A stretch of 64,000 bases of DNA from Planctomycetota bacterium (GTDB taxonomy: Bacteria > Planctomycetota > Phycisphaerae > WQYP01). The position numbers were made by a program, and so were the translations under genes. Below, one piece after another: positions 17,798 to 56,209 of this stretch. The stretch's first letter is position 1, and every line of letters starts with the position of its first letter. The stretch is taken from the NCBI GenBank assembly GCA_021831565.1, contig JAKBMM010000002.1, positions 39,440 to 103,439 on the forward strand, read 5' to 3'. A model generated the notes under the pieces. The model did not search any database, was not told the origin of the DNA, and saw nothing but the letters and a program-made list of their open reading frames with translations.

Positions 17798-18787
17798 CTA
17801 CCACTTCGCCTCACGGAGTTTGGAAGCAATTTCCTTGACGTTCGATGGGTCGATATTGGTTTTGGGGATTACCTCCCGCAGGTCGTGGAAAAGGGGACCC
17901 TGGATTGCATAAGGCGAGTCCTTTCTGTACTCCGTTTGCTCGGGGACTCCACAGAAGAAGCGATGGCCAGTTGAGACCTCCCATCCAAGGTCTTTCTTGG
18001 CCGCGTTTATTATGCCGATTATTTTGCTGTCGTATTCGGTTGTTTCGCGCCCGTCGACCAGCGTCTTGGTGAGGCGATCATTGACATATTCCGCGTCATA
18101 AATTGAGTCAACTGCCCAGATGCACGGCACATTTTTTTGTGCATATATTCCTAGAAATTTGTGTTTTCTATAGCCGCGATCTTGCGCATGGAAATAGACG
18201 CCGAATTGCTGGTTAATTTTTACCGTTTCGCTGCACGGAACGATTCGGAGGAGGAATTTCGATTCATCGAACAGCCCCGTGTCACTGCAATAGTCTATAT
18301 AATCTTCCACTAACGCAAGCATCTGCGGCTCGTGTTCCTTGAACATCGACTTAATTTCGTGGCAAATATCCTCGTAGGTGATGTTGCGAAAAACGAGGCT
18401 GGGAACTTGTTTTGCGATTTTGCCCCCCTCTATGGCGGATAACTGTTGTCGTTGTCGGGTTAGCAGGAGAAGTATTTTCTGGGACTCATTTGAAAAGCTA
18501 GTTGCATGCCGGGAGAGTTGGTCTAGGTTGACACCACTGTTGACCTTCGATTCCACAAGAATCTTGAAGCTCCGTTGGATTATGGCGCCATCAGGCACCG
18601 ATTGTTTGTTGCGCGGCTGCTGGTTGACTTCGATTCCCACAACTATTTCCTCCCCGCAAAGCTTGGTTAGCAGATTCGACAGGTGCTGCGGGGAATAATC
18701 GTATATGCGAGCGAGGAGTTGGAGCGTGTTATTTGTGACAGTATTCTCTTGGCCTGAATATCGCGGAAAATAATGGATTTTAGACAC
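17798..18787 (-). CDS. Hypothetical protein (329 aa) in a low-GC islet, with an N-terminal PD-(D/E)xK-like motif (VPDGAII...ILVESKV)
   Basis: Long ATG-initiated ORF with codon usage clearly different from its surroundings. No family recognised beyond the nuclease-like PD...ESK spacing. Confidence 0.6.
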   Translation of the reverse strand: MSKIHYFPRYSGQENTVTNNTLQLLARIYDYSPQHLSNLLTKLCGEEIVVGIEVNQQPRNKQSVPDGAIIQRSFKILVESKVNSGVNLDQLSRHATSFSNESQKILLLLTRQRQQLSAIEGGKIAKQVPSLVFRNITYEDICHEIKSMFKEHEPQMLALVEDYIDYCSDTGLFDESKFLLRIVPCSETVKINQQFGVYFHAQDRGYRKHKFLGIYAQKNVPCIWAVDSIYDAEYVNDRLTKTLVDGRETTEYDSKIIGIINAAKKDLGWEVSTGHRFFCGVPEQTEYRKDSPYAIQGPLFHDLREVIPKTNIDPSNVKEIASKLREAKW

Positions 18788-19280
18788 GTGTGGCTCCTTT
18801 CGCGCTCCCCGTTAAGACGATGTGACTGGGTGCATTGCGGGGACGGCATGCACCTTCACGGGTTATTCTGATGATGGCACCATCATATTTCACTTGCCCC
18901 AAATGCGACTCTAACTGGGATCCCTATTGCCCGCAAGCTTTATGCGCTAATGTTCTGTTAAACCGGCTCCCATCATTTCCGCCAGCGCCTGCGGCGTGGC
19001 GACTTTTTCTCGTCCATCAGCAGCGTGTTTTTATCTGTTGGAGTGTACCCGGTACGGTGAAACCGGAATTTGACCCAACCGCATATAAAACAAGCACTTA
19101 CGGTTTTTTATGCGTAGAACTTCGGATTAAGTTAACGCTTATGGTGAGGACGCCCCGCACTCCCAGGGGCGTCCGAAAAATTACCGCGCCCGTCGCACCG
19201 CGGCGAACCCCGGATAGGCAAGCGGGCTTCGCCCCCCGCGCTTTGGCAAACGCATGGATATAACGTCATTGGCGCCGCAA

Positions 19281-19368
19281 CGGAGAGAGTGGGATTCGAA
19301 CCCACGGTGGGGTCATCCCCCACACACGACTTCCAATCGTGCTCCTTAAGCCGCTCGGACATCTCTCC
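19281..19368 (-). tRNA. tRNA-Ser (anticodon GGA)
   Basis: Minus-strand sequence GGAGAGATGTCCGAGCGG...GTGGGTTCGAATCCCACTCTCTCCG. Perfect 7-bp acceptor stem, T-arm GTGGG-TTCGAAT-CCCAC, long variable arm, anticodon loop TTGGAAG. No encoded CCA. Confidence 0.9.
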
Positions 19369-19398
19369 AGAATCCCGGCGATCCGGGATACCTGTAAA

Positions 19399-20262
19399 CT
19401 ACCGTTCGTCCGAAGGTACGTCAATTTTCTCCCGATTTACCCCGGCGGCGGGCGACCGGGAAGGATCGGGATTCCGCCGGCCGTCGATCCGGCCGATCAG
19501 CCGCAACAGACCGTCGAGGATGGTCAGGGGATGCGGCGGGCAGCCGGGAACGAAAAGATCAACGGGCACAATGGAATCGGCGCCATGGTGGACCTGGGGA
19601 TGATCGCGGTACGGTCCGCCGGAAATGGCGCACGCGCCGATGGCGATGACTATTTTCGGTCCGGGCACGGCATCATAGGTTTGTACAAGGGCGGATTTCA
19701 TGTTCCGGGTAACCGGGCCGGTGATCAACAGACCGTCGGCATGGCGGGGCGAGGCGACAAAATCAATTCCGAAACGTCCCAGATCCCAGCCAATGGTGGT
19801 AAGCACATTGACATCGGCCTCGCAGGCATTGCAGCCGCCGGCCGAGACCACGCGCAATTTCAGCGAGCGGCCCAGGAGTTTGCGGAGTTTATCGTCCAGG
19901 GCCGCGGCGAGCGCCGGCTCGCCGTCGGGGCCTACCAGCAAGTCCGCGCGCCGCCGAACCGCCAGGCGATAATCACGCGAATATTGAATCGCGCCCGTCG
20001 GGCAGGCTTCGGCGCAATCGACGCAGAACAGGCAGCGGCCCAGATCCAGTTCGATGCGGCCGGCGGCGATGGTGATGGCCCGCGTGGGACAGGCCTGGGC
20101 GCACAGGTCGCATGAATCGGGGCACCGGGCGGCATCGAATACGGGCCGGGCACGGAAATGCGGCGCCAGCGCCGGCGGAGCGCCGTCGGGATAGGCCATG
20201 GTCTGATGGCCCTGTTGGAATCGGGCTTTGACAATATCGAACATAAAACGTTCCTTCACCAA
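19399..20262 (-). CDS. Fused 2x[4Fe-4S] ferredoxin (NuoI/HycF-like) + NuoB/HycG-like small subunit of a complex-I / group-4-hydrogenase-like module
   Basis: N-terminal CPDSCDLCAQACP and CLFCVDCAEACP. NuoB-like part has GGCNACE (hydrogenase-type CxxC), IGACAISGGPY and PGCPP proximal-cluster ligands. Confidence 0.8.
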   Translation of the reverse strand: MVKERFMFDIVKARFQQGHQTMAYPDGAPPALAPHFRARPVFDAARCPDSCDLCAQACPTRAITIAAGRIELDLGRCLFCVDCAEACPTGAIQYSRDYRLAVRRRADLLVGPDGEPALAAALDDKLRKLLGRSLKLRVVSAGGCNACEADVNVLTTIGWDLGRFGIDFVASPRHADGLLITGPVTRNMKSALVQTYDAVPGPKIVIAIGACAISGGPYRDHPQVHHGADSIVPVDLFVPGCPPHPLTILDGLLRLIGRIDGRRNPDPSRSPAAGVNREKIDVPSDER

Positions 20263-20268
20263 TCCGAA

Positions 20269-21786
20269 TTATAGATCGTGACCGCAGTAAGAAAGACTAA
20301 AACTCTTATTGCAGAGCGGGAAATCGGAAATTTGCCCGCCGCGCATCGCCAGGGCCAGCCCCATCCAGTTATGGAACGACGGATCAACCACTTTATAACG
20401 CTCGAAGCGGCCGGCGGCGTCGGTCAACGCCAGATGGCATATTTCGCCGCGCCACCCTTCCACCAATGCTACGGCCAGATGATCGGGCGCCAAATTTCCC
20501 ACCGGGGAGCTTATGGTTCCGGGCGGGAGGGATCGAAGCTGTGTCCGGACAAAGTCCAGGGATCGCTGAATTTCCAACCAGCGGACATAAGCGCGGGCGA
20601 AGACATCGCCGCCGTCCCAGGAAGAAACGGGGATATGTATAAACCGGAATAAGCCGGAGGGATGGTCCTGCCGGGCGTCGCGGGTAAGTCCGCAGGCGCG
20701 GGCCACCGGTCCGACCATGCCCAGTTCAACGACCGCGCGGCGCGTCACCGGGCCGATGCCCTCGAAGCGGGCCATCACCGAGGACGAATTCCAGAGCAAT
20801 TCGACGGCCTGGCGGGTCTGCCGGCCGCAAATATCCAGTTTCGCCAGCAGATCGTTCACGGTACAAGTGGCCGGATCAAAACGCACGCCACCCGGTCGAA
20901 TCAGTCCGCGTCCGAACCGGCTGCCGCAAAGAGCGGCCGTCATGTTCAGGAATTCACCGCGCAGGCGTCCGCAATAAGAGGCGGTGGGAAGAAAGCCCAC
21001 GTCGCCGCTGAGCGCCCCCAGGTCTCCCACGTGATTGGCCAACCTTTCCAGTTCCAGGGCGATGCCGCGAATGCTCTGCGCCCGCGGCGACTTCTGTTTG
21101 CGGGCCAACGCTTCGAGCACCTGGCAGTAAGCGGTGGCGTGTCCGATGGTGGTGTCGCCGGCGAGCGTTTCGGCGTAATGGATGGTGCGATGATTCGGAC
21201 CGCCGAGCAGTGCTTGCTCCACTCCTCGATGCTGGTATCCCAGCGCCATCTCCAGGTGAAACACAACTTCTCCGTGGCACTGGAAGCGGAAATGTCCCGG
21301 CTCAATGACGCCCGCGTGGACCGGTCCCACGGCCACCTCGTGCACTTCCTCCCCCCGCACCTGGTAGAAATCCATCACTCCCGGCGGCGCGACGCGATCG
21401 TTCCCGGGCCGGCCCGATGGAAACAATGGCGGATGAAAACGGAGCGGTTTGAGCCAGGGATGTCCGACGATATCCAAACCACACTGTTCGGCGATTTCCC
21501 GTTCAAAGAGATGTACCTGCGGACACCGGGGCGTTAAAGAAGGGTAGTGCCGGCCCGCCAGCGTGGAAGCGACCCGGAGAATGGATTGGGTATCGTCCGC
21601 CAGAACCACATACAGGCGCAGGCGATCCGGTGCTTCGAGCGAACCAAACAGGCTTGCCACCCGCCGGCCCGTGCGTACCGCATCCAGAATGACTTGCTGG
21701 AAGTTGTCCAGGGCCAGGTCGGGAATCAAACGACGGCTGATGGCGCGTCCGGCGCCGAGCAGGGGTAAAGAGTCGGCCTGATTCAT
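20269..21786 (-). CDS. Fused NuoC-like + NuoD/[NiFe]-large-subunit-like protein lacking all Ni-Fe-ligating cysteines (Ehr-type)
   Basis: NuoC motif FEREIAEQCGLDIVGHP; NuoD-like GPVHAGVIEPGHFRF...HRGVEQ. No CxxC anywhere; the C-terminus has DPSFHNW where hydrogenases have DPCxxC. Confidence 0.8.
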   Translation of the reverse strand: MNQADSLPLLGAGRAISRRLIPDLALDNFQQVILDAVRTGRRVASLFGSLEAPDRLRLYVVLADDTQSILRVASTLAGRHYPSLTPRCPQVHLFEREIAEQCGLDIVGHPWLKPLRFHPPLFPSGRPGNDRVAPPGVMDFYQVRGEEVHEVAVGPVHAGVIEPGHFRFQCHGEVVFHLEMALGYQHRGVEQALLGGPNHRTIHYAETLAGDTTIGHATAYCQVLEALARKQKSPRAQSIRGIALELERLANHVGDLGALSGDVGFLPTASYCGRLRGEFLNMTAALCGSRFGRGLIRPGGVRFDPATCTVNDLLAKLDICGRQTRQAVELLWNSSSVMARFEGIGPVTRRAVVELGMVGPVARACGLTRDARQDHPSGLFRFIHIPVSSWDGGDVFARAYVRWLEIQRSLDFVRTQLRSLPPGTISSPVGNLAPDHLAVALVEGWRGEICHLALTDAAGRFERYKVVDPSFHNWMGLALAMRGGQISDFPLCNKSFSLSYCGHDL

Positions 21787-23216
21787 GGCTTGGCTCCCAG
21801 ATATCGGCTGGCCTGGTGCAAAAGGTCCCGCAGCGGCGGCGGCAGATACAGCCCCAGCAACAATACCATCAGCAGAGCACCCAGCGCCGGCAGACCACTC
21901 AGCAGGCCATCGCGGTAATTGTTCCGCGCGGCGGCTACGGGCGCCCGGCCCAGCACGGCGGCGAGCACGGTTCGCCCCATTCCCAGGAAAATCACCAGCA
22001 GCAGAAACAGAAACGCCGCGCCGATCAGGAAATGCCCGGCGGCAAAGGCGCCGTTAAGAATCATGAACTCACTGATAAACGGGCCGAACGGAGGCGATCC
22101 GGTGATGGCCAGAAAACCCAGCATAAACACCGTGCCCGAGAGAGGCAGCCGTCGCATGGCGCCGTGCACCTGCGGTATGGTTTTGCCGCCGTAGGCCCGG
22201 TCGATGTTGCCGACGGAAAGAAACAGCGATCCCTTGGTCAGGCCGTTGTTGATCACGTGCAGCATGGCGCCCAGCAGAGCGATACCGCCGATTCCCAGTC
22301 CCAGCGCAAGAATTCCCATGTGTTCCACACTGGAATAGGCGAGCATCCGCTTGAGGTCCTTCTGGCCGATCATAAATATCGCCGCGAAAAGCATGGATAA
22401 AAGCCCCAGAAATATCAGGAGCCTGGAGGCATAAGCGCCATCGCCGGCGGCATACAGGATGTGCTCGGATCGCACCACCATAAGAAAAGCGCTGCTGATG
22501 AGCGCTCCGGAAAACATGGCCGAAACCGGAGCCGGGCTTTCGCCATGGGCGTCCGGCAGCCAGGAGTGCATCGGGGCCAGGCCCATTTTGGTTCCATAGC
22601 CGACCAGCAGCAGGACAAATCCGGCCTGAAGCCAGACCTTGTTGAGCCGGGGCGCCTGGCGAAGCAGGTCGATGATTTTCAGGGAAGGCGTCATTCCCCG
22701 GCTCACGGCGGAGTAAGCCACGAAAAATGATCCGAGCAAGGCCAGAGCGATGCCCACGGAGCAGATCAGGAGATATTTCCAGGTGGCTTCGATGGACTGC
22801 GGCGTGCGGTTGAAATATATCAAAGGCGCGGAGCTAAGGGTGGTGGCTTCCATGGCCACCCACATCAGGCCGAGGTTGTCCGTGCAGATGACCAGGGTCA
22901 TGGCGCCCAGAAACAGCAGGAAGCACGAGCAGAAGACGCGATTGGCATGATCGGCGCGGGAGCACAGGTATCCCGCCAAATAAAAAGAACACAGCAGGAA
23001 CAACACGCTCACCAGAAGCAGCACCACGCGCCCGGGCGGATCGATCTCCAGCCAGCCCCCGCGCGCGCCGCCGCCATATCCGGCCAGAATGGCCAGGACC
23101 AGGCCCAGGTGGGCGATCGCCACGGGCGGCAGGAGCCAGGGCCGCCGGCGGTTGGAGGGCAGCAGCGCCGCCAGGGCGGCGGCGAGAGGACATAGAATAA
23201 TAAGTGCAATGTACAT
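21783..23216 (-). CDS. NuoN/NuoM/MrpD-like antiporter-type membrane subunit (HyfF-like)
   Basis: 477 aa, 14 TM. Conserved WLPDAHGESPAPVSA and LAYSSVEHMG motifs. Start overlaps the previous gene by 4 nt. Confidence 0.8.
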   Translation of the reverse strand: MYIALIILCPLAAALAALLPSNRRRPWLLPPVAIAHLGLVLAILAGYGGGARGGWLEIDPPGRVVLLLVSVLFLLCSFYLAGYLCSRADHANRVFCSCFLLFLGAMTLVICTDNLGLMWVAMEATTLSSAPLIYFNRTPQSIEATWKYLLICSVGIALALLGSFFVAYSAVSRGMTPSLKIIDLLRQAPRLNKVWLQAGFVLLLVGYGTKMGLAPMHSWLPDAHGESPAPVSAMFSGALISSAFLMVVRSEHILYAAGDGAYASRLLIFLGLLSMLFAAIFMIGQKDLKRMLAYSSVEHMGILALGLGIGGIALLGAMLHVINNGLTKGSLFLSVGNIDRAYGGKTIPQVHGAMRRLPLSGTVFMLGFLAITGSPPFGPFISEFMILNGAFAAGHFLIGAAFLFLLLVIFLGMGRTVLAAVLGRAPVAAARNNYRDGLLSGLPALGALLMVLLLGLYLPPPLRDLLHQASRYLGAKP

Positions 23217-23223
23217 ACGTTAA

Positions 23224-23865
23224 TTATCCCTTCAAGGAAGAAAGCCGCCGGGTGTCCAGCGAAGCGAACTCGCGATTGATGTGATGCATGATGATGCTGA
23301 TGACAAAAATGCCGACAAACAGGTCCAGCAGTACGCCCAGCTCCACCAGGGACGGGATCGCGCCGAGCAGAAGCAGACCGAAAACGAAAATGCCGTTTTC
23401 CAGCAGCAGAAAACCGATGGTTTGCGTAAGGGCCTTCACCCGCGTGGTCAAAAGCAGAAAGCCGGTGAAAAGCATGGAGATGGAAGTGGGAATCACCAAC
23501 AGACCCAGAGGGCTTGCGGAAGGCGTGATCCGTCCGGCCAGCACCAGGGCGGCGCCGGTGGCGGCGGCGCCCAGAAGAATGCAGGGCATGAATCCGATGA
23601 TCGGTTCCACCTCCCGTTTGACGTGGGCGTCGCGCAGGGCCTTGAGCAGCATATTGGGAATCACGACGCCTTTGAGCACAACCGTCATCAAGGCCATGAA
23701 CAGCGGTACGAATTGCGCCTCCCGGAGCACCAGGGGAGGCAGCAATCCCAGCAAGATGCCCTGGAGCGCCGCGGCGTGTATCAAAGCCTTCATGCGGCCG
23801 GCGCCCAGGACAAACAGGTTGATCAGAATCACCAGTACAAAAATGGCGTTGAGGGTCATCATCAT
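23224..23865 (-). CDS. HyfE-like small membrane subunit of the complex
   Basis: 213 aa, about 6 TM; size and hydropathy are those of hydrogenase-4 component E. 7-nt gap to the neighbouring genes. Confidence 0.6.
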   Translation of the reverse strand: MMMTLNAIFVLVILINLFVLGAGRMKALIHAAALQGILLGLLPPLVLREAQFVPLFMALMTVVLKGVVIPNMLLKALRDAHVKREVEPIIGFMPCILLGAAATGAALVLAGRITPSASPLGLLVIPTSISMLFTGFLLLTTRVKALTQTIGFLLLENGIFVFGLLLLGAIPSLVELGVLLDLFVGIFVISIIMHHINREFASLDTRRLSSLKG

Positions 23866-23871
23866 GGTCGG

Positions 23872-24810
23872 TCACCGCAGCAGCAAAAGAAATCCAAAAC
23901 CGTTCAAAAGACAGGCGGCAACCAGAAGCGTCGGCACCAGTCGAAGCTGCAGCCGGGCCATGATGGATTCCACCACGCCAATCACACCCGCCACCGCCAG
24001 CAGGCCGGGTATGGTCATCGCCCAGTTTTCCCAGATCCATCCCTGATTCAGCGGGAGCAGCACATGGAGCAGCAGGGCGCCGAGGACCAGAAGTTTGACG
24101 GCTGATCCGTAAATCTGCGCCGCCAGCAGGGGGCCGCTGTTGTCCAGCACCAGCACCTCATGTATCATTGTCAATTCGAGATGTGTATTTGGATCATCAA
24201 TGGGCAGACGGGAGGTCTCCGCCAGGAGCACCACGAACAATCCGAACGCCGTGAGCACCAGCGCCGCCGCGGCCGTGGAATCAATAGCGACATGTGTCGC
24301 GGGCGCCAGCATGGTGCTCAGGCTCAAGGTTCCGGAGAGTTTCACCAGCACCAGCAGCGCCAGAAACAACGCCGGTTCCGAAAAGGAGGCGAAGGTGAGT
24401 TCCCGGGCGGCCCCCATCCCCTCAAACGATGAGCCGGTATCCAGCGCCGCCAGAATGGTGAAAAATCTCCCCAGCGCCAGCAGGTAAGCAAACAGGATCA
24501 GATCGCCGGTGAAATGCACGGGAGCCGCGGTCGGTCCCAGCGGAACAAGCAACCCCGCCAGCAAGACGCTGGCCAGGGAAATCAGCGGCGCGGCCGAAAA
24601 CACCCAGGTTGTGGTGGAACTCAGCACGACGCCTTTGCGCATGAGCCGAAGCAGATCGTAGTAAGTCTGGAAAAGCGGCGGGCCGACGCGCCCGGCGAAC
24701 CAGGCCTTGGTTTTGTTGATAACGCCCGGCAGCAATGGCGGCAGAAGCACCAGCAGCAGGATCTGAAAAGCAATCGAAATAAGCGTATTCATAAAGTCAA
24801 TAGCTCGCAA
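23872..24810 (-). CDS. NuoH/HycD/HyfC-like membrane subunit
   Basis: 312 aa with 8 TM. Conserved IDDPNTHLELTMIHEVLVLDNSGP-type loop (the E/D-rich quinone-channel loop region). Confidence 0.75.
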   Translation of the reverse strand: MRAIDFMNTLISIAFQILLLVLLPPLLPGVINKTKAWFAGRVGPPLFQTYYDLLRLMRKGVVLSSTTTWVFSAAPLISLASVLLAGLLVPLGPTAAPVHFTGDLILFAYLLALGRFFTILAALDTGSSFEGMGAARELTFASFSEPALFLALLVLVKLSGTLSLSTMLAPATHVAIDSTAAAALVLTAFGLFVVLLAETSRLPIDDPNTHLELTMIHEVLVLDNSGPLLAAQIYGSAVKLLVLGALLLHVLLPLNQGWIWENWAMTIPGLLAVAGVIGVVESIMARLQLRLVPTLLVAACLLNGFGFLLLLR

Positions 24811-24828
24811 ATATCGTGCGACCGCCCC

Positions 24829-26796
24829 TCAAACCAGCAACAGCACCAGAACAATCAGCAAGACGTAAAGCAGATACAACTGCACCGTACCGCTCTGAAA
24901 AATCCTGGCGGATTTAAGGGTATTCCCGGCCTTGTGCAACGCCGGTTGCACAACGCTCTCCAGCAGCGGGTCCGGGGTATGAGAGGCATAGTTCGATGGT
25001 TGGGGAAAAACGCCCTGAATCCGCGGTTGTCGCCGGGTGGACCACACAAGCCAGCGCAGCATTTCTGTGAGCGCTTGCGTGAGCGATGAGCCGGTGTACT
25101 GCATGCGCTGGTTGGGAGAGACGTAACCACAACCCCATGTCCGGCCGGGGTTACGGATCCGGGCGTGCCGCCAGGGTATGGCCAGCACCCCGATCAGTCC
25201 GCCCGCGAAGAACAGGGCCAGGGCCACAGCGGTAAAACAGCCCAGGGGAATAATGGTTTCCAGGGGGATGGGCGCGTTCCAAGGCGTCCAGGCTCGAATC
25301 GCATGATCCAGAAGTCCTGTGAACAACTGCGGAAAAATGCCGACGATCGCACAGCCGGCGGCCAGCAGCAGCATGGGCGCCAGCATCATGGACCCCGGCT
25401 CATGGGCGTTGGCGGCCGCCGCGGTTCGCGGTTGGCCGGCGAATGATGTCGCCGTGAACTTGATAAACGTCGTCATGGCCAAAGCCCCGACCATGGCCAA
25501 CAGGGGAACGGCCAGTGCGGCCCAGCCGGCGGGTGTTCCCCCCTGGAGCGTTTTGAATAATCCCAGGTAAATGAACAGTTCGCTGACAAAGCCATTCCAT
25601 GGCGGCAGAGCCGAGATGGAGGCCGCTCCAACCAGCATCAGCCAGAAAAGCGTCGGCATTCGTCGGGCCAGGCCGCCCAAAGCCTCCAGATCGCGGGCGC
25701 CCGTGCCGTGTATGATTCCGCCGGCGCCCATGAACAGGAGCGGTTTGAACAGGCTATGATTGAACATGTGAAGCAGCGATCCCCCCAGTCCCAGCGCCAC
25801 CCAAAGCGGGTGTTGCAGGGATAGTCCCAACACGGCCAGCCCCAGACCCGTCATGAGAATGCCGATATTTTCAATGCTGCTGTAGGCCAGAAGCCGCTTG
25901 CAGTCCCTCTGCGCACAGGCCCATACAATTCCCAGGAAAGCCGAGAGCATTCCACAACTGAGCAGCACCGCTCCCCACCAGATCGGTGGATGACCCGCGA
26001 TGGCGGCCACCCGCACGATGCCGTAAACGCCCATGTTCAGCAGCACACCGGAAAACAGCGCCGATACGTGGCTAGGGGCATTGGCGTGCGCCCCCGGCAG
26101 CCAGACATGCAGCGGGACCAGACCGGCCTTGCAGCCAAATCCCACCAGCCCCAGAATAAACAGAGCCGCCAGCATCGCTCTCGGCAGGTGCGTCAGGCCG
26201 GTCGGCCAGAGATTTAGCGAACCGGACCCGACTCGGAGCAATACGAAAAAGGCGATCAGACAGAGTGTGGCAATATGGGTGGCGATGAGGTAGACCCATC
26301 CCGCCTGTTGCACTTGCGGCCGACGGTCCTCGGTTATCAGAAGAAAGTAGCCCGCCATCGCCATGATTTCCCAGGCGATGAGGAATTCCACGCTGTTGGC
26401 GGCGAGAACCACCAGGATCATTCCGGCGGTCGTGATTCCCCAGAATAAACGGAGTTTGCGTCCATCCGCGGGATGCCGCCGCTGCGGCCAATAGCCCAGG
26501 CCATAGACGGACCCCAGGGCGGAAATCAGAAAAATGGGAAGTAAAAACCAGGCGCTTAAGTCATCCAGTTGCAAGGCGGGCTTGCCGATCGGAAAGCGGT
26601 ATGTCGTGGCCCAATGCAACGGAGCGGCCGCCGCTAGATCATGGCGCAACAGTACCGCGATGCCGAGGGCGCTGGCCAGCACATGGATGGCCATCGATAG
26701 TACCGGCCCGCGCGCGCTGCGCCGGCCGGACACCAGCGAAGGCAAGCCGCTTCCAGCGATCAATAGAGCGGCGAGAATCAGAAGAAACATGGTCAT
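24829..26796 (-). CDS. NuoL/MrpA/HyfB-like antiporter-type subunit, paralog 1
   Basis: Start taken at MTMFLLI (ATG 26796; GGAG RBS 9 nt upstream). Conserved HVWLPGAHANAPSHVSALFSG and KRLLAYSSIENIG motifs. Confidence 0.8.
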   Translation of the reverse strand: MTMFLLILAALLIAGSGLPSLVSGRRSARGPVLSMAIHVLASALGIAVLLRHDLAAAAPLHWATTYRFPIGKPALQLDDLSAWFLLPIFLISALGSVYGLGYWPQRRHPADGRKLRLFWGITTAGMILVVLAANSVEFLIAWEIMAMAGYFLLITEDRRPQVQQAGWVYLIATHIATLCLIAFFVLLRVGSGSLNLWPTGLTHLPRAMLAALFILGLVGFGCKAGLVPLHVWLPGAHANAPSHVSALFSGVLLNMGVYGIVRVAAIAGHPPIWWGAVLLSCGMLSAFLGIVWACAQRDCKRLLAYSSIENIGILMTGLGLAVLGLSLQHPLWVALGLGGSLLHMFNHSLFKPLLFMGAGGIIHGTGARDLEALGGLARRMPTLFWLMLVGAASISALPPWNGFVSELFIYLGLFKTLQGGTPAGWAALAVPLLAMVGALAMTTFIKFTATSFAGQPRTAAAANAHEPGSMMLAPMLLLAAGCAIVGIFPQLFTGLLDHAIRAWTPWNAPIPLETIIPLGCFTAVALALFFAGGLIGVLAIPWRHARIRNPGRTWGCGYVSPNQRMQYTGSSLTQALTEMLRWLVWSTRRQPRIQGVFPQPSNYASHTPDPLLESVVQPALHKAGNTLKSARIFQSGTVQLYLLYVLLIVLVLLLV

Positions 26797-26840
26797 CAAC
26801 AACGACTCCAGACGACTCCATCCCGGCACGCCGGGATCGG

Positions 26841-28823
26841 TTAAAACAGGATCTTCCAGAGCGCTCCCAACGGGAGCGTAATCAGAAGCAGAAAAAGTAA
26901 CATCAAAAGCATATAAAAAAGATAGCTCTGAACGTTGCCCCGCTGGAACACGCGGCCATTGGCCAGCACGGATCGCAAACGCCGCCACCCGGGTTCCAGA
27001 ACGTTTTTCAGGACCGGATCATCCACATGCGAATGGAATTGACCGGGACCGGCAAAGAGGCCCGATAGCCGCGGTTCGCGACGGCGCATGCGCAGCAGCG
27101 GCCGCAATGTACCCAGCAGCATTTGTGCCAGGGAGGAGGCGGTGTACTGCATACGGCTGGAAGACCCGGCGTAACCGCAATTCCACGTCGGTTGGGTCCG
27201 CGCCTGGCGCGCCAGGAACCGCCGGAGAAGGAAAGCGACCAGGAGGACCGCGGCCAGAGACAGATTCATTATGGTCAAGGCGGTTAGCGGAGTCAGCGCA
27301 ACCAGCGCCGGCAGTCCCCGGTGGGCCCAGGCGCTGGTGGTTCGGTTCAACGGCGTTGCCACCAGCGTGGGCGCCATTCCGATCAACAGACATCCGCCGG
27401 CGAGAATCATCATCGGCAGCCAAAACGCCGGGCCGGCTTCGCGCACCCGGCGCAGCTTGGTGCGGGCTGTTCCAAGAAAGACCGCGCCGCAGACCTTGGT
27501 GAAGCACGCCGCCGCCAGCGCCCCGACCATGGCCAGCACTCCGGCAGCCAGAGCCAGTATCGGCAGCACGGTCATTGTTCGCAGAAGCCCCACGTAAATG
27601 AAAAGTTCACTGACAAATCCATTCAGCGGCGGCAGGCCGCAGATGGCGATGGCTCCGAGCAAAAACAGGTTGGAAGTAAGCGGCATGGATTGGGCCAGCC
27701 CGCCGAGCCGATCGATTTTCCGCGTTCCGGCGGCATGGATGACACTGCCCGCGGAAAGGAACAAAAGCGACTTGAACAATCCGTGATTCCAGACGTGCAG
27801 AAGACATCCGGCCATTCCCAGGATGATCCATATCGGCTGATGTTTTGCCTCGCCGATCAGCGCCAGTCCCAGTCCCAACAGGATGATTCCGATGTTTTCC
27901 ACACTGTGATACGCCAGGAGTTTTTTCAGATCGTGCTGACCGATCGCCCATAACACACCGAGAAATGCGCTAAGTGCGCCGAGCGTCATAACCAGAATGC
28001 CCCAGCCGAGCGGTCTGGCCGGAAGCAGCGGCAACACGCGCAGCAGCCCGAAAATGCCCATCTTAATTGTGGTTCCCGATAACGTTGCGGATACATGACT
28101 CGGAGCGTTCGCGTGGGCTTCGGGCAGCCAGAAATGCAGCGGCACCATGCCGGCCTTAACGCCGAAGGCCCCCAGGGCCAGTAGAAATAACGCCGTCTGC
28201 AATCCCATACCGGCCTGTTCCGGCGAAAGCGGACGCAGAAGAAATGATCCCGACGCCATACGCAGCAAGGCAAAAAAGGCGAACAGCAGCAAGGTGCTTA
28301 TGTGTGCCGCCGCCAGATAAACCCAGGCGGCCTGGCGGGAGTCGGGCTTGAAGTCTTCCGTGGCTATAAGGAAAAACGTGCTGATCGCCATGAGTTCCCA
28401 CGCAAACAGAAAGCAAATGCCGTTGTTGCTCAACGTAATCATCGCCATGCTGGAAATGAGTATTCCGTACCAGAATCGCAGTTTCCGGCCGGTCCGGGGA
28501 TGATGACTTTGTTTCCAGTAACCGATGCCATAGAGCGAACATAGGCCGCCGATAAGAAAAATGGGGACCAGAAAAAATGCCGCCAGCGGATCAAGCCGGA
28601 GGTTGGTGGTCATGACCGGCGCCGGTCCGGGACCGGCCAGAGATTCAACCGGGGCGCCAAGCAGTATGGCCATAGCGGCCGTGAGGCCGCACAGCGCGGC
28701 CAGGACGGCCACCAACACCGAAAGCCAATGTCCCCAATTGCGGCGGCGATTGCCCACCATACCTATCAGGCCGCTGGCGGCAAAGCCGCCCGCGCCCAGC
28801 AATGTCATGGTCAGCCACATCAC
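26841..28823 (-). CDS. NuoL/MrpA/HyfB-like antiporter-type subunit, paralog 2
   Basis: 660 aa. HFWLPEAHANAPSHVSATLSG and KKLLAYHSVENIG. First gene of the structural part of the operon. Confidence 0.8.
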   Translation of the reverse strand: MMWLTMTLLGAGGFAASGLIGMVGNRRRNWGHWLSVLVAVLAALCGLTAAMAILLGAPVESLAGPGPAPVMTTNLRLDPLAAFFLVPIFLIGGLCSLYGIGYWKQSHHPRTGRKLRFWYGILISSMAMITLSNNGICFLFAWELMAISTFFLIATEDFKPDSRQAAWVYLAAAHISTLLLFAFFALLRMASGSFLLRPLSPEQAGMGLQTALFLLALGAFGVKAGMVPLHFWLPEAHANAPSHVSATLSGTTIKMGIFGLLRVLPLLPARPLGWGILVMTLGALSAFLGVLWAIGQHDLKKLLAYHSVENIGIILLGLGLALIGEAKHQPIWIILGMAGCLLHVWNHGLFKSLLFLSAGSVIHAAGTRKIDRLGGLAQSMPLTSNLFLLGAIAICGLPPLNGFVSELFIYVGLLRTMTVLPILALAAGVLAMVGALAAACFTKVCGAVFLGTARTKLRRVREAGPAFWLPMMILAGGCLLIGMAPTLVATPLNRTTSAWAHRGLPALVALTPLTALTIMNLSLAAVLLVAFLLRRFLARQARTQPTWNCGYAGSSSRMQYTASSLAQMLLGTLRPLLRMRRREPRLSGLFAGPGQFHSHVDDPVLKNVLEPGWRRLRSVLANGRVFQRGNVQSYLFYMLLMLLFLLLITLPLGALWKILF

Positions 28824-29548
28824 TCGCCTTGCCCCGGTGAGTTGCCATGGGCCGCCGCAGGACCTTGCCCTGTCGTCAAAATACCGGACTCCGCCCGTCG
28901 CAGGGATTCCAGAACCTCTTCCCGGGCGGCCTGCTCCAGCACGACCTTCTTGAATCCCGGATCACGCAGGACAAAACCCAGCCGCGAAAGCAATTGCAGA
29001 TGCGCCCGCACAGTGGGACTGATAAGCGTAAAGAGAGTACTTACCGGCTGCCCGTCGAGTGCCCCAAAGTCCACGGGCTTTTCCAGGAAACACAGCACGA
29101 TCATGGGACCGGACAGGTGCAACACGATGGGATTGCGGACATGCGGAATCGCGATTCCTTCTCCAATGCCGGTCGAGCCGAGAGCTTCCCGGGCCAGCAA
29201 CACCTGATAGAGAAATTCGCGGTCCACTTCCTCCGGCAGCCGCATGATTTCCACCACGCTGCGCAGCACGGAACTTTTATCGACGCCGCTGATCCGGTAG
29301 TAGATGCCGCCATCGCGCAGCGCATCGGTTAGCGATGGCGCCGGCGTTTCACCTCCCTCCGGTTCAAGGAAGATTTCCGGGGAAACATGAATTTTTCGTG
29401 AGGTGGACCACTCAAGCAGCTCAGCCCGGTTGAATCGGTATTGCTCGTTAACCTGGTAGGCGGGAATGATCCCCTGCTTAATCCAGCGGTACACGCTTTT
29501 TTCCGATACATTAAGTAGTCGAGCGGCATCGCGGACGGTGAGTTTCAT
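28820..29548 (-). CDS. HTH (excisionase/MerR-like HTH_17) + PTS EIIA(Ntr/Fru type-2) two-domain protein, translationally coupled to the complex operon
   Basis: MKLTVRDAARLLNVSEKSVYRWIKQG HTH; EIIA-2 domain with phosphorylatable His in GEGIAIPHVRNP. Its stop overlaps the next start (ATGA). ATG 29548 with AAGGG RBS. Confidence 0.75.
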   Translation of the reverse strand: MKLTVRDAARLLNVSEKSVYRWIKQGIIPAYQVNEQYRFNRAELLEWSTSRKIHVSPEIFLEPEGGETPAPSLTDALRDGGIYYRISGVDKSSVLRSVVEIMRLPEEVDREFLYQVLLAREALGSTGIGEGIAIPHVRNPIVLHLSGPMIVLCFLEKPVDFGALDGQPVSTLFTLISPTVRAHLQLLSRLGFVLRDPGFKKVVLEQAAREEVLESLRRAESGILTTGQGPAAAHGNSPGQGE

Positions 29549-29588
29549 ATCATGCCCTTCATACAACCATTGTGTCGCATTATTACCC

Positions 29589-29617
29589 ACTATAAAACAA
29601 ATGTCCTAAAAAGTCAA
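29589..29617 (-). promoter_or_regulatory. Near-consensus sigma70 promoter TTGACT-N17-TATAGT driving the HTH-EIIA/complex operon
   Basis: On the minus strand: TTGACT (plus coordinates 29612..29617), 17-nt spacer, TATAGT (29589..29594), about 40 nt upstream of ATG 29548. Confidence 0.5.
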
Positions 29618-29640
29618 TCGGATGGCAAAAAAAAGGACAT

Positions 29641-31458
29641 TCACCTGTTTTTTTCATTCCGCACCGCTGATTTTCCGGGGATACGCCGAGTTTTACCAGC
29701 GGACTCCTTGCCGTCTGCCGCATTCCGCGATGCCAGCGCGAGTAACTCTTTGGCCTGTGCCAGCGCGGTGTCGGTGACGTTTTTACCGGTGGTCATTTCA
29801 GCCAATTCGCGAACCCGCGTCTCGCCCTCTAACATCGTTATTGAGGTAAAGCTTTCTCCGTCCCGAACGCTCTTATGGATGCTGATATGCTGGTCGGCGA
29901 AAGCTGCTATCTGGGGCAAATGCGTGATGCAGAGCACCTGATGATGCGCCGCAAGTCTCCGGAGTTTTTCACCGATAAGAGTTCCCATGCGTCCGCCGAC
30001 ATTGGCATCGATTTCATCAAATACCAGCACGCTCACGCGGTCCGAGGCGGCCAGAATGGACTTGAGCGCCAGCATCACGCGTGAAAGTTCACCCCCGCTG
30101 GCTATTTTCCGCAGCGGGCGCGCCTCTTGACCCGGGTTGGGCGCGATCATGAACTCAACCGTTTCCAGACCCTGGGGCGAGGGGAATGAATCCGCCGGCG
30201 ACGCGCCGGGATCGGCTGGTCCGACGTGGTCCGGAGTCTCCGCTGCGATCGGCTGCAATTCCACGGCGAAGCGGGCGTCTTTCATTCCCAAATCGATCAG
30301 TTGCCCGTGTACCAGCGGCACGAGTTTTTGGGCCGCCGCCCGGCGCTTTTTAGACAATTCTTGACCGATTTTAGTCAACTGTTCGTTCCCGTCGGCCAGA
30401 CGGGCGTTGCATGAGGCGGAGTCATGATCGGCCGCGAGCAAACTTGCCATGTCCCGGCCGATTTGCCGGCGATACTCCAGCAGTTGAGAGAGCGAGCCGC
30501 CGGCGCCAACATATTTGTTGATAAGCCGGTGCAGCAGATTCAGGCGTTCGCGTACGTTGGCGAGTTCGTCGGGATCCAGTTCAAGCCGGTCACGGGTGCG
30601 GCGGAGAGCGAAGGCCGCATCGTCCAGCGATACCGCCGCGTCGCGTACCTGCGTCGCGATGGCCGCCAAGTCGGGATTGAGTTCGGCGATTTCGAGCAGA
30701 ACCGCCGTGATGGTTTTAATCCGTTCGACGACTGCGCCCTCGTCCTCATAAAGCGCTTCATAAGCCGCCCCCGCCTGCCGTTTGATCTTTTCCGCATTGG
30801 CCAGCAACTTGTGGCGGTTTTCGAGCTGTTCCTGTTCGTCGGGTTGGAAATCGGCCTGATCGATTTCACCGATCTGGAATTCGTAAAGTTCCAGTTGCTG
30901 GCGGCGAAGTGTTTGCGACGTCTCTCCCTTGCGCTTGCGATCCAGGAGATCGCGCCGCTGCTGGTGCAACCGGCGGAACTGTTCCGCTTCCGCCGCCGCG
31001 CCCCCAAATTCGTCGAGCACCGCCAGTTGGTTGCCCGGTTGGAGCAGAAACTGTGCGTCGTGCCGGCCATGGATGTCGGCCAACGCTTCGCCCAGCGCCT
31101 TGAGCATGGTTCCCGTCAACGGATGGCCGTTAAGCGACGCCGACGTGCGCCCGCTTTTATGCAGGCGGCGAACGAGAATCATTTCAGGTTCATCGGCCAG
31201 GGGCAGGTCGGTGAGGGCCGCCAACTCCTGGCGCAGGCGGGGGGCGGCAATGTGAAATACGCCCGTGACCCGGCCCTCCACGGCGCCGGCGCGGAGCATA
31301 TTTCCCGGGGAACGAAGCGCCAGCAGCAGTTCCAGCGCGCCGATCACCAGCGACTTGCCGGCGCCGGTCTGTCCGGTAAAGCAGGTAAGCCCCGCGTCCA
31401 ACTCGATATGGACATCGGCGATAATCGCCAGATTGGAGATGTGCAATTCGCGCAGCAC
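29641..31458 (-). CDS. recN: DNA repair protein RecN
   Basis: LRELHISNLAIIADVHIEL...FTGQTGAGKS N-terminal Walker A and C-terminal ABC signature region. GTG start inferred at 31458. Confidence 0.85.
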   Translation of the reverse strand: MLRELHISNLAIIADVHIELDAGLTCFTGQTGAGKSLVIGALELLLALRSPGNMLRAGAVEGRVTGVFHIAAPRLRQELAALTDLPLADEPEMILVRRLHKSGRTSASLNGHPLTGTMLKALGEALADIHGRHDAQFLLQPGNQLAVLDEFGGAAAEAEQFRRLHQQRRDLLDRKRKGETSQTLRRQQLELYEFQIGEIDQADFQPDEQEQLENRHKLLANAEKIKRQAGAAYEALYEDEGAVVERIKTITAVLLEIAELNPDLAAIATQVRDAAVSLDDAAFALRRTRDRLELDPDELANVRERLNLLHRLINKYVGAGGSLSQLLEYRRQIGRDMASLLAADHDSASCNARLADGNEQLTKIGQELSKKRRAAAQKLVPLVHGQLIDLGMKDARFAVELQPIAAETPDHVGPADPGASPADSFPSPQGLETVEFMIAPNPGQEARPLRKIASGGELSRVMLALKSILAASDRVSVLVFDEIDANVGGRMGTLIGEKLRRLAAHHQVLCITHLPQIAAFADQHISIHKSVRDGESFTSITMLEGETRVRELAEMTTGKNVTDTALAQAKELLALASRNAADGKESAGKTRRIPGKSAVRNEKNR

Positions 31459-31574
31459 GACGCATAGTTTACACCGGCGCCGCCGTCTTGGTACGAGGGC
31501 GCTCGATCGTCCGAAAAACATTTGAAAAACAAGCAAGGGTCGAGCGCCGCACGATTATCGGAAGGAAAAGAAAA

Positions 31575-32729
31575 ATGCGCATGTCGTTCCAAGCTCGCGC
31601 CCATGATTCGCCGATAGAACGTGCGGGGAAGACGCCGCCGAAGCGGCGCGCCGCCTCGGAAAAAACGGAGATACCCATGTCCCAGATCACCGTCCCCGAT
31701 CCCAAAACCTCCGGACGCGGTACTTTGATTCCGCAGGACGTCAATCGCGCGAATCGCACGCCGGAACTTGCAGCAACGTCGATCCGATTGAACAACAGTT
31801 ATGTTGCGCCGGCAAGCAAACCGGCCCGCGAAGTGTTCCCCCGAAAGTTCTCGACCCCTTTACCGCGCGTGATCTCGTGGGGGAATCTCACCCTGGCGGA
31901 GGCGGGATGTCTGCTGCTCCTGGCCGCGACGTTTTACATGCCCATCCAGGGCGCCGCCGCCAACTGGTGGACGAATCTCAAGATTGGTTCGCCGGTCTAC
32001 AACCTGCCGGTCTTGTTGCGTAACTGGCAAGTGCTTTCCGCCATGATCGGCATGATTCTGCTGCCATTCCTGCGCCCGGGGACCCGCGCCAAGCTTGTGT
32101 TTGGCATCAGCCTTAGTGTGCTGGGGCTGATGACGCTCGCCATCCTGTGCCAATATCGTGTCGGATTCAGCCTGGTATTTCTGCCGACCCTGGGCTTGTT
32201 GAGTCTGGCCGCCCTTTATGCGGTGCTCCGCGCCCGGACGCTCAATCCCCAGGCGGCGTTCCTGCAACGCTGGCAAACCATGACCGCGTCCGCCGCCGTA
32301 GTGCTGTGGTCTCTTCCGGCCCTTGGCAGCTTCTTTGATAACGGGATCCGGAATATTTTTTCCGTGGCCGGCGCTTATTCCCCTTGGCTATCGTTGACGT
32401 TCAGTCTGGGCGCCACCGCGGCGGCGGTTGCGGCGGCGCTGGCCCTGGGCGAGACGAAAGACCACTTCCACCCCCGGCTTAATTGCGCGGCGCGGGCGAT
32501 GGCCGGCGGCGCCATGCTTATGCTTGTCGGCGCGGGATTCGCCGTGGTCAGCATGGTCTCAGAGGCTTTTTTCCCAAGCTTGGGCGCCGGCTGGTTTGGC
32601 GTGGGAACCATGTGGTTGTTCCTGCTGGTCATTGCCTGCATGATGTTGTTTGGATCGGGCATGGTGCAGCAATTCGGGCTGTTAGCCTTGAATTACCGCC
32701 AGGAGGAACCCCTCCCGCGCACCGATTAG
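31575..32729 (+). CDS. Hypothetical polytopic membrane protein
   Basis: ATG at 31575 with GAAGGA RBS; about 8 predicted TM helices; no recognised family. Confidence 0.45.
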   Translation: MRMSFQARAHDSPIERAGKTPPKRRAASEKTEIPMSQITVPDPKTSGRGTLIPQDVNRANRTPELAATSIRLNNSYVAPASKPAREVFPRKFSTPLPRVISWGNLTLAEAGCLLLLAATFYMPIQGAAANWWTNLKIGSPVYNLPVLLRNWQVLSAMIGMILLPFLRPGTRAKLVFGISLSVLGLMTLAILCQYRVGFSLVFLPTLGLLSLAALYAVLRARTLNPQAAFLQRWQTMTASAAVVLWSLPALGSFFDNGIRNIFSVAGAYSPWLSLTFSLGATAAAVAAALALGETKDHFHPRLNCAARAMAGGAMLMLVGAGFAVVSMVSEAFFPSLGAGWFGVGTMWLFLLVIACMMLFGSGMVQQFGLLALNYRQEEPLPRTD

Positions 32730-33047
32730 AGTCGAAGATTCCACGGCATATTATGAACCGGCGGCGATGCGGGGCCGGGATGATATAACGCCAAAGCCCG
32801 CGTCCCCGAGCCGGCGGGTGTAAACATAGTGTTTTCGTGGTTCCCCCTGATCGCAACGGCCATGAACCATCCAGTCGCCACCGAGCCGAATCCGCCATGC
32901 GCCCACACCGGTCCAGCCGGATTGGATCGACCGGATTGGATCGACTCGCCCGCCCCGGGCGATCCCGCTACAATCGGCGGAGATGGAGTTCCGGCTCTTT
33001 TGGAAAATGGTGGATGGCTCGGCTATCTTAGAAATATAGATTATTGC

Positions 33048-34754: not shown

Positions 34755-34782
34755 CCAGCCGCCCGCCCCGGCCGGCAGGCTC

Positions 34783-36189: not shown

Positions 36190-36391
36190 GATGGGAATCT
36201 CCTTCTTTTCAAGGCCTTGTCGCTTGCCGGGAAAACGAAACCATGTACTTGGACATTTTTTTCCCGAAGACTTAAGTACGGCAGCGCTACTTTTTATCCG
36301 AAGGGGCCTTTAGGGGATCGAAAACAGCAATCCAATGGGTCAGAGCACTTCGCAAAATAAGCACTTACGGACAATCCAGCGCTCGCGCAAT

Positions 36392-49491: not shown

Positions 49492-49528
49492 AGTCGGGAA
49501 GGGTCTCTCGTGAAGGAGGACGTCGCCG

Positions 49529-56139: not shown

Positions 56140-56209
56140 AATCTCCGCACATGACGCTTTCCACGTCAGGGAGGTCTGTTTCCACACGGCCATGCGGTTT
56201 TCCACGGTT

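Follow-up and report, generated by a model that had tools for sequence, protein, structure and literature searches.

Organization of the ehr operon

We analyzed a window of 64,000 nucleotides from a Planctomycetota bacterium (GenBank assembly GCA_021831565.1, contig JAKBMM010000002.1, positions 39,440 to 103,439), which contains an operon for a membrane complex related to complex I and the group 4 [NiFe]-hydrogenases. The list of open reading frames (ORFs) and the sequence showed eight co-oriented ORFs tightly packed on the minus strand (19399-29617), with one sigma-70-like promoter upstream. This agrees with the initial annotation, which had proposed an eight-gene, translationally coupled operon behind a promoter at 29589..29617. 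The ORF calls agree with the public gene calls (metagenome-assembled genome GCA_027343245.1). The locus is a complete operon for an energy-converting-hydrogenase-related (Ehr) complex, in which a regulator gene is followed by seven structural genes coding for EhrA-1, EhrA-2, EhrB, EhrC, EhrD, EhrL, and EhrS. The regulator combines a helix-turn-helix (HTH) domain with an EIIA domain of the phosphoenolpyruvate (PEP)-dependent phosphotransferase system (PTS). The features are, in the direction of transcription:

29589..29617, minus strand: sigma-70-like promoter TTGACT-17 nt-TATAGT, 10 of 12 consensus matches, the best site in 19000-29900 and the only strong one
28820-29548, minus strand: regulator, HTH_17 + PTS_EIIA_2; 242 aa; PF12728 60.9 bits, PF00359 83.5 bits
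26841-28823, minus strand: EhrA-1, HyfB/HycC/NuoL-like antiporter-like membrane subunit; 659-660 aa; Proton_antipo_M; best NCBIfam match hydrogenase-4 subunit B, 543 bits (cut-off 667)
24829-26796, minus strand: EhrA-2, second HyfB/NuoL-like antiporter-like subunit; 655 aa; Proton_antipo_M; NF005086 hydrogenase-4 subunit B, 525 bits (cut-off 667)
23872-24810, minus strand: EhrB, NuoH/HycD-like membrane subunit; 306-312 aa; NADHdh PF00146, 105.8 bits
23224-23865, minus strand: EhrC, HyfE-like small membrane subunit; 213 aa; NF008556 hydrogenase-4 membrane subunit, 69.5 bits over the full length (cut-off 136)
21783-23216, minus strand: EhrD, HyfF/NuoN-like antiporter-like subunit; 477 aa; Proton_antipo_M; NF005044 hydrogenase-4 subunit F, 352 bits (cut-off 610)
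20269-21786, minus strand: EhrL, large subunit, NuoC-like N-terminal part fused to a NuoD/HycE-like part; 505 aa; Complex1_30kDa + Complex1_49kDa
19399-20244/20262, minus strand: EhrS, small subunit, HycF/NuoI-like 2x[4Fe-4S] domain fused to a HycG/NuoB-like domain (Oxidored_q6); 281 aa from ATG 20244, 287 aa from TTG 20262
19280-19369: tRNA-Ser(GGA), beyond the EhrS end of the operon

The start of EhrA-1 lies on the stop codon of the regulator gene, with an overlap of 4 nt (GTGA) or 1 nt (TGATG), and the EhrD and EhrL genes overlap at ATGA. The remaining gaps measure 44 nt (EhrA-1/EhrA-2), 18 nt (EhrA-2/EhrB; 36 nt from an alternative start), 6 nt (EhrB/EhrC), 7 nt (EhrC/EhrD), and 6 nt (EhrL/EhrS; 24 nt from an alternative start). 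The regulator (ATG 29548) and EhrS (ATG 20244) likely start downstream of the beginnings of their maximal ORFs, and ATG 29548 is also the regulator start in the public gene call. Terminator-like sites were not in excess in the operon region (15 vs. 12.7 in shuffled sequences), and an Rfam scan of the operon found no leader or riboswitch. The tRNA-Ser gene, which had been annotated as the operon end, is ruled out as a part of it and is a mere neighbor, because it is missing downstream of EhrS in the relatives.

Searches of each subunit with Pfam and NCBIfam profiles supported the Hyf-like subunit set that had been proposed; the Pfam scan gave no match for EhrC. The scores for the Hyf/Hyc equivalogs were all under the curated cut-offs (543 vs. 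667; 352 vs. 610; 69.5 vs. 136), which indicates that no ordinary Hyf or Nuo orthologue is encoded here. The subunit set equals the seven-subunit list published for Geobacter: EhrA-1, EhrA-2, EhrB, EhrC, EhrD, EhrL, and EhrS (PMC7894505). The seven-subunit module is thus of an already described kind, and this operon is a typical representative of the Ehr family, not an exception.

The large subunit lacks the ligands of the NiFe center

EhrL is homologous to the large subunits of group 4 [NiFe]-hydrogenases and to NuoD (PF00346, 121 bits; HycE 7z0s_E, 162 bits; MbhL, 122 bits). In the alignment to Escherichia coli HycE (PDB 7z0s_E), all four cysteine positions that bind the NiFe center are replaced (A208, T211, S499, and G502), the last three being read in register past the end of the HycE alignment. 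The first motif is RVCGICGFAH in HycE and TLAGDTTIGH in EhrL (CGIC to AGDT); the second, by register past the alignment end, is DPCYSCTDR in HycE and SLSYCGHDL in EhrL.

A search of 1.84 billion cluster representatives with EhrL gave 895 matches at E <= 1e-30. The closest named relatives belong to the Tepidisphaerales (Planctomycetota). The motifs AE[ST]IAGD[ST]..H and ..LSY[CSA]G.DL are common to nearly all of 75 full-length representatives. Four of the 75, with 36-38% identity to EhrL, retain CG.C and LCY[SA]C and are real hydrogenases; in the ranking of the search hits, they come after every Cys-less homologue. An identical EhrL is recorded on 21 contigs from four source collections, and two fetched loci that encode it (an NCBI assembly and a JGI metagenome) have the same operon, so the missing cysteines are not a sequencing error. 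The absence of Ni-Fe ligands reported in the initial annotation is therefore a trait of the whole family. Nor is the former NiFe site decaying, because its residues are strongly conserved: among 49 diverse sequences, conservation reaches 90% or more at G210, D211, S499, and Y500 and is complete at G502, D504, and L505.

By the published definition, Ehr complexes are related to group 4 and are excluded from the hydrogenases for their missing NiFe cysteines (PMC10284858, PMC6349859), and they have been placed beside group 4f (PMC10284858), with which the low rank of the Cys-containing homologues agrees. In the window, both CxxC motifs (L1 and L2) are missing, and a small subunit with the proximal cluster, a NuoH-like subunit, and Mrp/NuoL-like subunits are encoded in one cluster. 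The marks of a group 4 [NiFe]-hydrogenase, namely the four Cys ligands and the Hyf/Hyc equivalog scores, are lacking. The proposed assignment to the Ehr type fits both this definition and the Geobacter list (PMC7894505, PMC10284858, PMC6349859).

Could Ehr nevertheless be a real hydrogenase that evolves or consumes H2, with a metal center bound via other residues? Its subunits are overall closest to the formate hydrogenlyase (FHL)/Hyf type, the GPxHAGxIEPGHFRF loop is kept with its Glu, and C501 lies one position before the fourth ligand site. The four canonical positions, however, are all non-Cys, and in many members of the family C501 and C492 give way to S, A, I, V, or N. No hyp maturation genes were found among the window ORFs that were scanned, and published work keeps Ehr apart from the hydrogenases because of this lack of cysteines (PMC10284858, PMC6349859). 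We find a hydrogenase of this kind barely credible.

Conservation of the redox and putative ion-translocating machinery

The 12 Fe-S cysteines expected in EhrS are all kept, and each is conserved in 60-68 of 71 homologues; the HycF/NuoI-like domain has eight of them and the HycG/NuoB-like domain four. EhrA-1, for which formate hydrogenlyase HycC is the best relative of solved structure (7z0s_C, 233 bits), has the Glu of transmembrane helix (TM) 5 (WE) and the Lys residues of TM7 (GVKAG), TM8 (IKMG), and TM12 (LFKSLLF). Reading of the translations gave WE, CKAG, and LFKPLLF in EhrA-2 and ME, TKMG, and LTKGSLF in EhrD. All three antiporter-like subunits thus retain the TM5 Glu, TM7 Lys, and TM12 Lys motifs, and EhrA-1 has the TM8 Lys as well. 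The roles of these Glu and Lys residues come from established work on complex I.

Downstream of EhrS in the related loci, no gene family recurred among 229 ORFs, which indicates that the seven subunits are the whole conserved enzyme. Since no dedicated input subunit is conserved beside the operon, the electron donor is most likely a soluble carrier such as ferredoxin, by analogy with Ech and the membrane-bound hydrogenase (MBH). The conservation pattern shows that the module is under strong constraint and self-contained, with no conserved redox partner.

These data bear on a statement made for Geobacter KN400 (PMC13194489), by which Ehr would be a non-functional, decaying leftover of a group 4 hydrogenase and have no current role. 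The loss of all NiFe ligands fits that view, as do missense mutations of ehrA-2 and ehrB in long-term evolution, which were read as relaxed selection (PMC13194489). Against it, all eight ORFs are unbroken and closely coupled; conservation across phyla extends to the 12 Fe-S cysteines, the charged antiporter residues, and the residues of the former active site; and a dedicated regulator with operator-like repeats, described below, co-evolves with the module. Moreover, all Ehr subunits were detected in Geobacter proteomes and were differentially abundant there (PMC7894505, PMC8691401). The non-functional view is thus contradicted by the conservation data, and we consider it very improbable.

A further possibility is that Ehr is not mainly redox-driven and works as a regulated cation/proton or inorganic-carbon device, like DabAB or the Cup modules of NDH-1, with Asp, His, and Cys at the former NiFe site binding another metal. 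The three antiporter-like subunits would suit such a device, and at the former site D211 is conserved, H215 is mostly so, and C492 and C501 are often present. PtsN-type proteins classically control K+ and ion transport, and a PtsN-like controller would fit ion or C/N homeostasis. Yet a conserved wire of three Fe-S clusters would be pointless without redox chemistry, and the residues that might bind a metal, H215, C492, and C501, vary within the family, which makes this alternative quite improbable.

The HTH_17-EIIA regulator

In the product of the first gene, an HTH_17 (excisionase/MerR-like) DNA-binding domain at the N-terminus precedes a PtsN-like EIIA domain at the C-terminus. The HTH_17 domain scored above the curated thresholds (PF12728, 60.9 vs. 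27 bits; TIGR01764, 49.5 vs. 28.8 bits), and it is as well conserved among homologues as the EIIA domain. A profile of 20 homologues identified E. coli PtsN as the best solved relative of the EIIA domain (1a6j, 1.5e-23), with the GIAIPH histidine aligned. The domain is of EIIA type 2 and has the phosphorylatable His within G-x-G-x-A-x-P-H. H136 and H183 are invariant in 20 regulator homologues from many phyla, and His136 is the predicted phosphorylation site. The regulator is not a PtsN orthologue, because it scored under the cut-off of the PtsN equivalog (TIGR01419, 66.6 bits; cut-off 138.7) and has the extra HTH domain. A reading of the HTH as antiphage MADS1 was rejected; the match reached 43 bits against an 80-bit cut-off and reflected HTH similarity alone.

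Linkage of the regulator to Ehr across genomes

The related loci used for comparison are labeled L followed by three digits. A scan with an EhrL profile of one genome per species gave 80 loci in many phyla, of which 58 were evaluable (operon start covered). An HTH-EIIA homologue with at least 39% identity was inside the cluster in 34 of these, and a further 11 have a more distant protein that matches both Pfam domains, giving 45 of 58, from 10 named phyla. The regulator is thus an almost constant companion of Ehr. The named phyla in which it occurs include Planctomycetota, Verrucomicrobiota, Acidobacteriota, Desulfobacterota, Spirochaetota, Gemmatimonadota, Fibrobacterota, Omnitrophota, and Hydrogenedentota. 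Conversely, a scan of metagenomes with an HTH-EIIA profile gave 80 loci with 59-77% identity; EhrA was directly downstream on the same strand in 59 of the 60 that had enough downstream sequence. The linkage of the regulator to Ehr is real and general, and it is strong in both directions. The initial annotation had counted a lack of conservation of the HTH-EIIA gene with the module in relatives as a refutation, and the result is the opposite. That annotation knew of no description of such a linkage, and in the searchable literature we likewise found none of a link between a PTS/EIIA protein and Ehr or of the operator-like repeats; neither a PTS regulon nor one for Ehr is given in Rodionov 2004.

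The regulator diverges in step with EhrL (Spearman 0.61 between their identities, p = 1e-5), and it is conserved on a par with the structural subunits (56% vs. 59% for EhrL). Gene order varies among the loci: the order of the window is also found in Pelobacter and Geomonas (L023, L027), the EIIA-EhrA1 pair is inverted as a unit in the Geobacter-type loci L029, L036, and L061, the order is A1-EIIA-A2 in the Verrucomicrobiota loci L063, L068, L070, L071, and L077, and there is a single EhrA in most other phyla.

These arrangements bring up the alternative that HTH-EIIA acts mainly after translation, its EIIA domain docking on Ehr, most likely on EhrA, and gating the activity (cf. EIIA-Ntr on TrkA/KdpD), with DNA binding secondary or absent; a dual role would also be possible. 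The regulator gene stays beside that of EhrA through the rearrangements just listed for the Geobacter-type and Verrucomicrobiota loci, its stop codon overlaps the EhrA1 start in the window, and a conservation equal to that of structural subunits is unusual for a transcription factor. However, in L028 and L032 the regulator gene is beside EhrL-EhrS with no adjoining EhrA, the HTH_17 domain is conserved as well as EIIA, and the positioned, conserved repeat arrays in the promoters favor DNA binding. On balance we regard gating as the principal function as unlikely.

Some loci depart from the common pattern. The sole metagenomic HTH-EIIA locus with no Ehr gene downstream is L158:2789-4494 (66% identity), where a divergent paralogue (25% identity) is upstream on the opposite strand and the TGTCCATTAATGTCT pair is still at -49. 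Two HTH-EIIA paralogues per Ehr locus occur in L055:1200-2898 (divergent) and L052:1615-3008 (tandem). A second, paralogous Ehr-like cluster adjoins the first in L036:13314-20548 and L047:2580-9980; its large subunits have 36-37% identity to the EhrL of the window and also lack the NiFe cysteines (C-terminal SYSG motif). L086 was considered as a different module behind the same regulator, and this was rejected: in this close relative, an Ehr operon is cut off after EhrD, with EhrL and EhrS missing from the locus. The two genes that follow (L086:15976-18197) look like a restriction-modification system; one has a precomputed NspV family match, and the other has sub-threshold methyltransferase/N6_Mtase matches.

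Operator-like repeats in the promoters

Direct TGTCC(A/T) repeats (GGACA on the other strand) with a period of ~10-11 bp occur upstream of the regulator genes. The pair TGTC[CT]-N5-6-TGTC[CT] has a frequency of 1.83 per kb upstream of these genes and of 0.017 per kb in 1.33 Mb of loci; 15 of its 22 occurrences are in regulator upstream regions, always on the strand of the gene. In a second, independent set from metagenomes, the pair or its reverse complement was present in 38 of 76 unique upstream regions, compared with 94 of 4000 random 200-nt windows (2.4%).

The forward pair is commonest at -49 from the ATG, right behind a TAnAAT hexamer. Many promoters have TTGACAT-N3-4-GGACAT over the -35 hexamer and the spacer, and in L105, L107, and L126 the repeats make a composite palindrome around the -10 hexamer; the consensus form of the repeat promoter is ATGTCCAAAGATGTCCAAAG. 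In L009, the pair is between the regulator gene and EhrA, and it is absent near the EhrA start in all 13 evaluable Ehr loci that lack the regulator. The window has these elements:

29617-29612 (TTGACT) and 29607-29601 (AGGACAT), minus strand: direct GACW/GGACA repeats, overlapping the -35 hexamer and the spacer
29634..29640, minus strand: ATGTCCT, an inverted copy of AGGACAT just 5' of the -35 hexamer; a possible further half-site, weak alone and not conserved in position in the nearest relatives

The sequence GACWNNNNNDGACAT occurs once in the whole window, at the promoter, with 0.25 occurrences expected by chance. The footprint T[TG]GACT-TTTT-[AG]GGACA-T-N6-[CGT]ATAAT is specific to this lineage and common to the window and its closest homologues (L083, L086, L087, L089, L093, L094, L097, and L100). 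The repeats thus lie on the -35 hexamer and spacer in the window, and directly after the -10 hexamer in most other phyla. Proteins of the HTH_17/excisionase type, BldC among them, bind direct repeats as head-to-tail multimers (PMC5859096). From their enrichment and position, we infer that the repeats are probably an operator for the regulator.

A separate arrangement was seen in L028:1-176, where at least five tandem copies of CACTTTTGTCATCTC, each with TGTCA, are upstream of the HTH-EIIA gene directly before EhrL-EhrS, with no membrane subunits between.

Comparison with known systems

Ehr of Geobacter sulfurreducens (GSU0739-0745; Coppi, 2005; PMC7894505) has, by the published list, the same seven subunit types, and it is alike in its Cys-less large subunit, its fused small subunit, and its two NuoL-like subunits. 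Among Geobacter-type/Desulfuromonadia loci, L023 and L027 have the same gene order, and L027, L029, L036, and L061 have an HTH-EIIA gene. The window differs in its host, which is a Tepidisphaerales-like member of the Planctomycetota, and in that the regulator is the first cistron and overlaps EhrA-1, whereas the pair is inverted in several Geobacter-type loci.

The FHL and hydrogenase-4 of E. coli (Hyc/Hyf; 7z0s; group 4a, also 4f) provide the best solved or curated relatives of EhrL (HycE), EhrA (HycC/HyfB), EhrC (HyfE), EhrD (HyfF), and EhrS (HycF + HycG). The fusion of NuoC and NuoD in the large subunit is shared, and the GP.H...EP loop is kept in EhrL. In contrast to these systems, Ehr has no NiFe cysteines, formate dehydrogenase, or HycB-type input module, and its HycF-like and HycG-like parts are fused in EhrS.

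The MBS/Mbx (6u8y) and MBH (6cfw) complexes of Pyrococcus furiosus also belong to the complex I superfamily; they are ferredoxin-dependent and ion-translocating and, like Ehr, have no NADH module. In MBS, a hydrogenase-like module without a complete NiFe site reduces another substrate (polysulfide). However, EhrL matches 6u8y_L with 67 bits compared with 162 for HycE, the active-site motif differs, and the Mrp-type small subunits of MBH and MBS are not in the Ehr operon. With complex I (Nuo/Nqo), Ehr shares homologues of NuoB, C, D, H, I, and L/M/N, a NuoK-like part, the three terminal Fe-S clusters, and the antiporter charges, but NuoE/F/G and separate NuoA, NuoJ, and NuoK are not in the operon, and His38 and Tyr87 of Nqo4 correspond to Ile and Gly.

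As for the regulator, PtsN and the EIIA-bearing PRD regulators (MtlR/LicR type) share with it the PtsN-like EIIA fold with the GIAIPH histidine, and the idea of PTS control of a DNA-binding protein. Unlike the MtlR/LicR type, it joins HTH_17 directly to EIIA in one short polypeptide, with no PRD, AAA+, or Mga-type domains, and its operon is bioenergetic, not one of sugar catabolism. BldC and Xis have the same HTH type (PF12728, TIGR01764), and the target predicted for the regulator consists of direct repeats spaced by roughly one turn of the helix, like that of BldC (PMC5859096). These are single-domain proteins without a sensor, whereas the regulator, whose DNA binding is predicted, carries a PTS sensor domain.

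Proposed mechanism

The explanation that we consider rather probable is that Ehr is a ferredoxin-oxidizing, ion-translocating complex under a dedicated HTH-EIIA regulator controlled by phosphorylation. EhrS, with its three [4Fe-4S] clusters, would accept the electrons of a soluble carrier with a low potential; ferredoxin is the likeliest, by analogy with Ech, MBH, and MBS. The electrons would pass from EhrS to the EhrL interface, where a conserved polar site (G-D-[S/T] and S-Y-[C/S/A]-G) would replace the NiFe center and reduce an acceptor other than H+; a membrane quinone would be a guess. The redox reaction may be coupled to the movement of H+ or Na+ via the NuoH-like subunit and the three antiporter-like subunits, and the reverse direction would also be possible.

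The HTH_17 domain of the regulator would bind arrays of (T/G)GACA (TGTCC), one helical turn apart, that overlap the core promoter of the operon. The EIIA domain would be phosphorylated on His136 by a carrier of the HPr/NPr type encoded elsewhere, and the phosphorylation state may alter DNA binding or oligomerization. In this way the regulator probably switches the Ehr operon on or off. Because EIIA phosphorylation would control the regulator, Ehr synthesis would respond to the cellular status of carbon, nitrogen, and energy (PEP/pyruvate).

Several observations weigh against this explanation. The donor, the acceptor, the coupling ion, and the direction are all inferred. As to the acceptor, alignment to 2fug_4 showed that His38 and Tyr87 of Nqo4, which we take to be quinone-site residues, are Ile161 and Gly209 in EhrL, so residue conservation lends a quinone no support. 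No genes for HPr/NPr or Enzyme I were found in the window, and none for these or HprK beside the clusters in ~2 Mb of related loci, where regular-expression matches to HPr, Enzyme I, and HprK signatures were only ABC-type P-loops; the phosphodonor, if any, would therefore be encoded elsewhere. An AlphaFold2 model of the regulator, made with an alignment of 45 close homologues, had a mean predicted local distance difference test (pLDDT) score of 59.8 and values <50 in the EIIA core, and it was not used. The array in the window is short, with two good repeats in the 'reverse' orientation, and its strict pattern is weakly unlikely (1 vs. 0.25 expected). The -35 hexamer TTGACA coincides with part of the repeat, which inflates some k-mer enrichments. 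Finally, 13 of the 58 Ehr loci have no HTH-EIIA homologue nearby. An alternative regulator was not found among their upstream neighbors, which are mutually unrelated (T2SSE, ankyrin, TPR, and pentapeptide proteins, and unknowns).

A wider reading joins all these elements, and we hold it more tentatively, as possible but doubtful. The regulator would represent a new class of transcription factor controlled by PTS phosphorylation within one polypeptide, possibly also a direct gate of the complex. It would travel with Ehr and its own TGTCC-repeat operator across at least ten phyla and wire the C/N/energy status to a widespread, complex-I-like ion pump, and the former NiFe pocket (G-D-[S/T], S-Y-x-G-x-D-L) would do chemistry unseen in the complex I superfamily.

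Other features of the window

A cobalamin riboswitch (RF00174, 107.6 bits) is at 1081-1312 (minus strand), upstream of an ORF at 1-963 (minus strand) that runs off the window start. At 15880-17441 (plus strand), ~2 kb from the end of the Ehr operon, the gene of a HipB-like HTH_3 protein (104 aa) overlaps that of a HipA-like kinase (416 aa), which looks like a toxin-antitoxin pair. The region 41004-44428 (plus strand) encodes the sensor kinase KdpD (908 aa) together with a KdpE-like response regulator. The two ORFs upstream of this pair encode a glycosyltransferase and a HAD hydrolase, and the next scanned ORF downstream encodes a fumarase on the opposite strand, so kdpFABC is not adjacent. KdpD of E. 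coli is a known partner of EIIA-Ntr.

At 56192-57416 (plus strand), a 220-aa ORF without a family match is followed by a lone NuoC-like ORF (56898-57416, 172 aa; Complex1_30kDa, 140.9 bits), which has no adjacent nuo genes and is positionally unrelated to the Ehr operon. The region 46426-50647 (plus strand) encodes a 1021-aa hybrid histidine kinase, which has receiver and Hpt domains, and then a receiver-HD (HD-GYP-like) protein. Large ORFs with high GC content at third codon positions and no Pfam match are found at 17798-18787 (minus strand, 329 aa), just downstream of the tRNA-Ser gene, and at 31488-36360 (plus strand; 413, 641, and 549 aa), beyond recN. The sole match of the 641-aa ORF is FtsX-like, C-terminal, and below threshold.

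Significance for the Ehr family

Ehr was recognized ~20 years ago and is present in many phyla, and it is still a functionally unsolved relative of complex I and the membrane hydrogenases. No functional study of it was found in the searchable literature, and a 2026 paper still terms the Geobacter complex non-functional (PMC13194489). The link between the regulator and its putative operator is apparently undescribed and is a useful lead on the long-standing question of what Ehr does. The regulator, its predicted phospho-histidine, and the PTS offer a handle for finding the conditions that induce Ehr, and then its function. Among the cultured hosts are Geobacter species, Geomonas limicola Red745, in which all eight genes are in the order of the window (L027), and Fontivita pretiosa, with an EhrL (representative sequence P0081) that has 66% identity to that of the window. 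The minimal HTH-EIIA architecture would also be an addition to the known modes of transcription control by the PTS.

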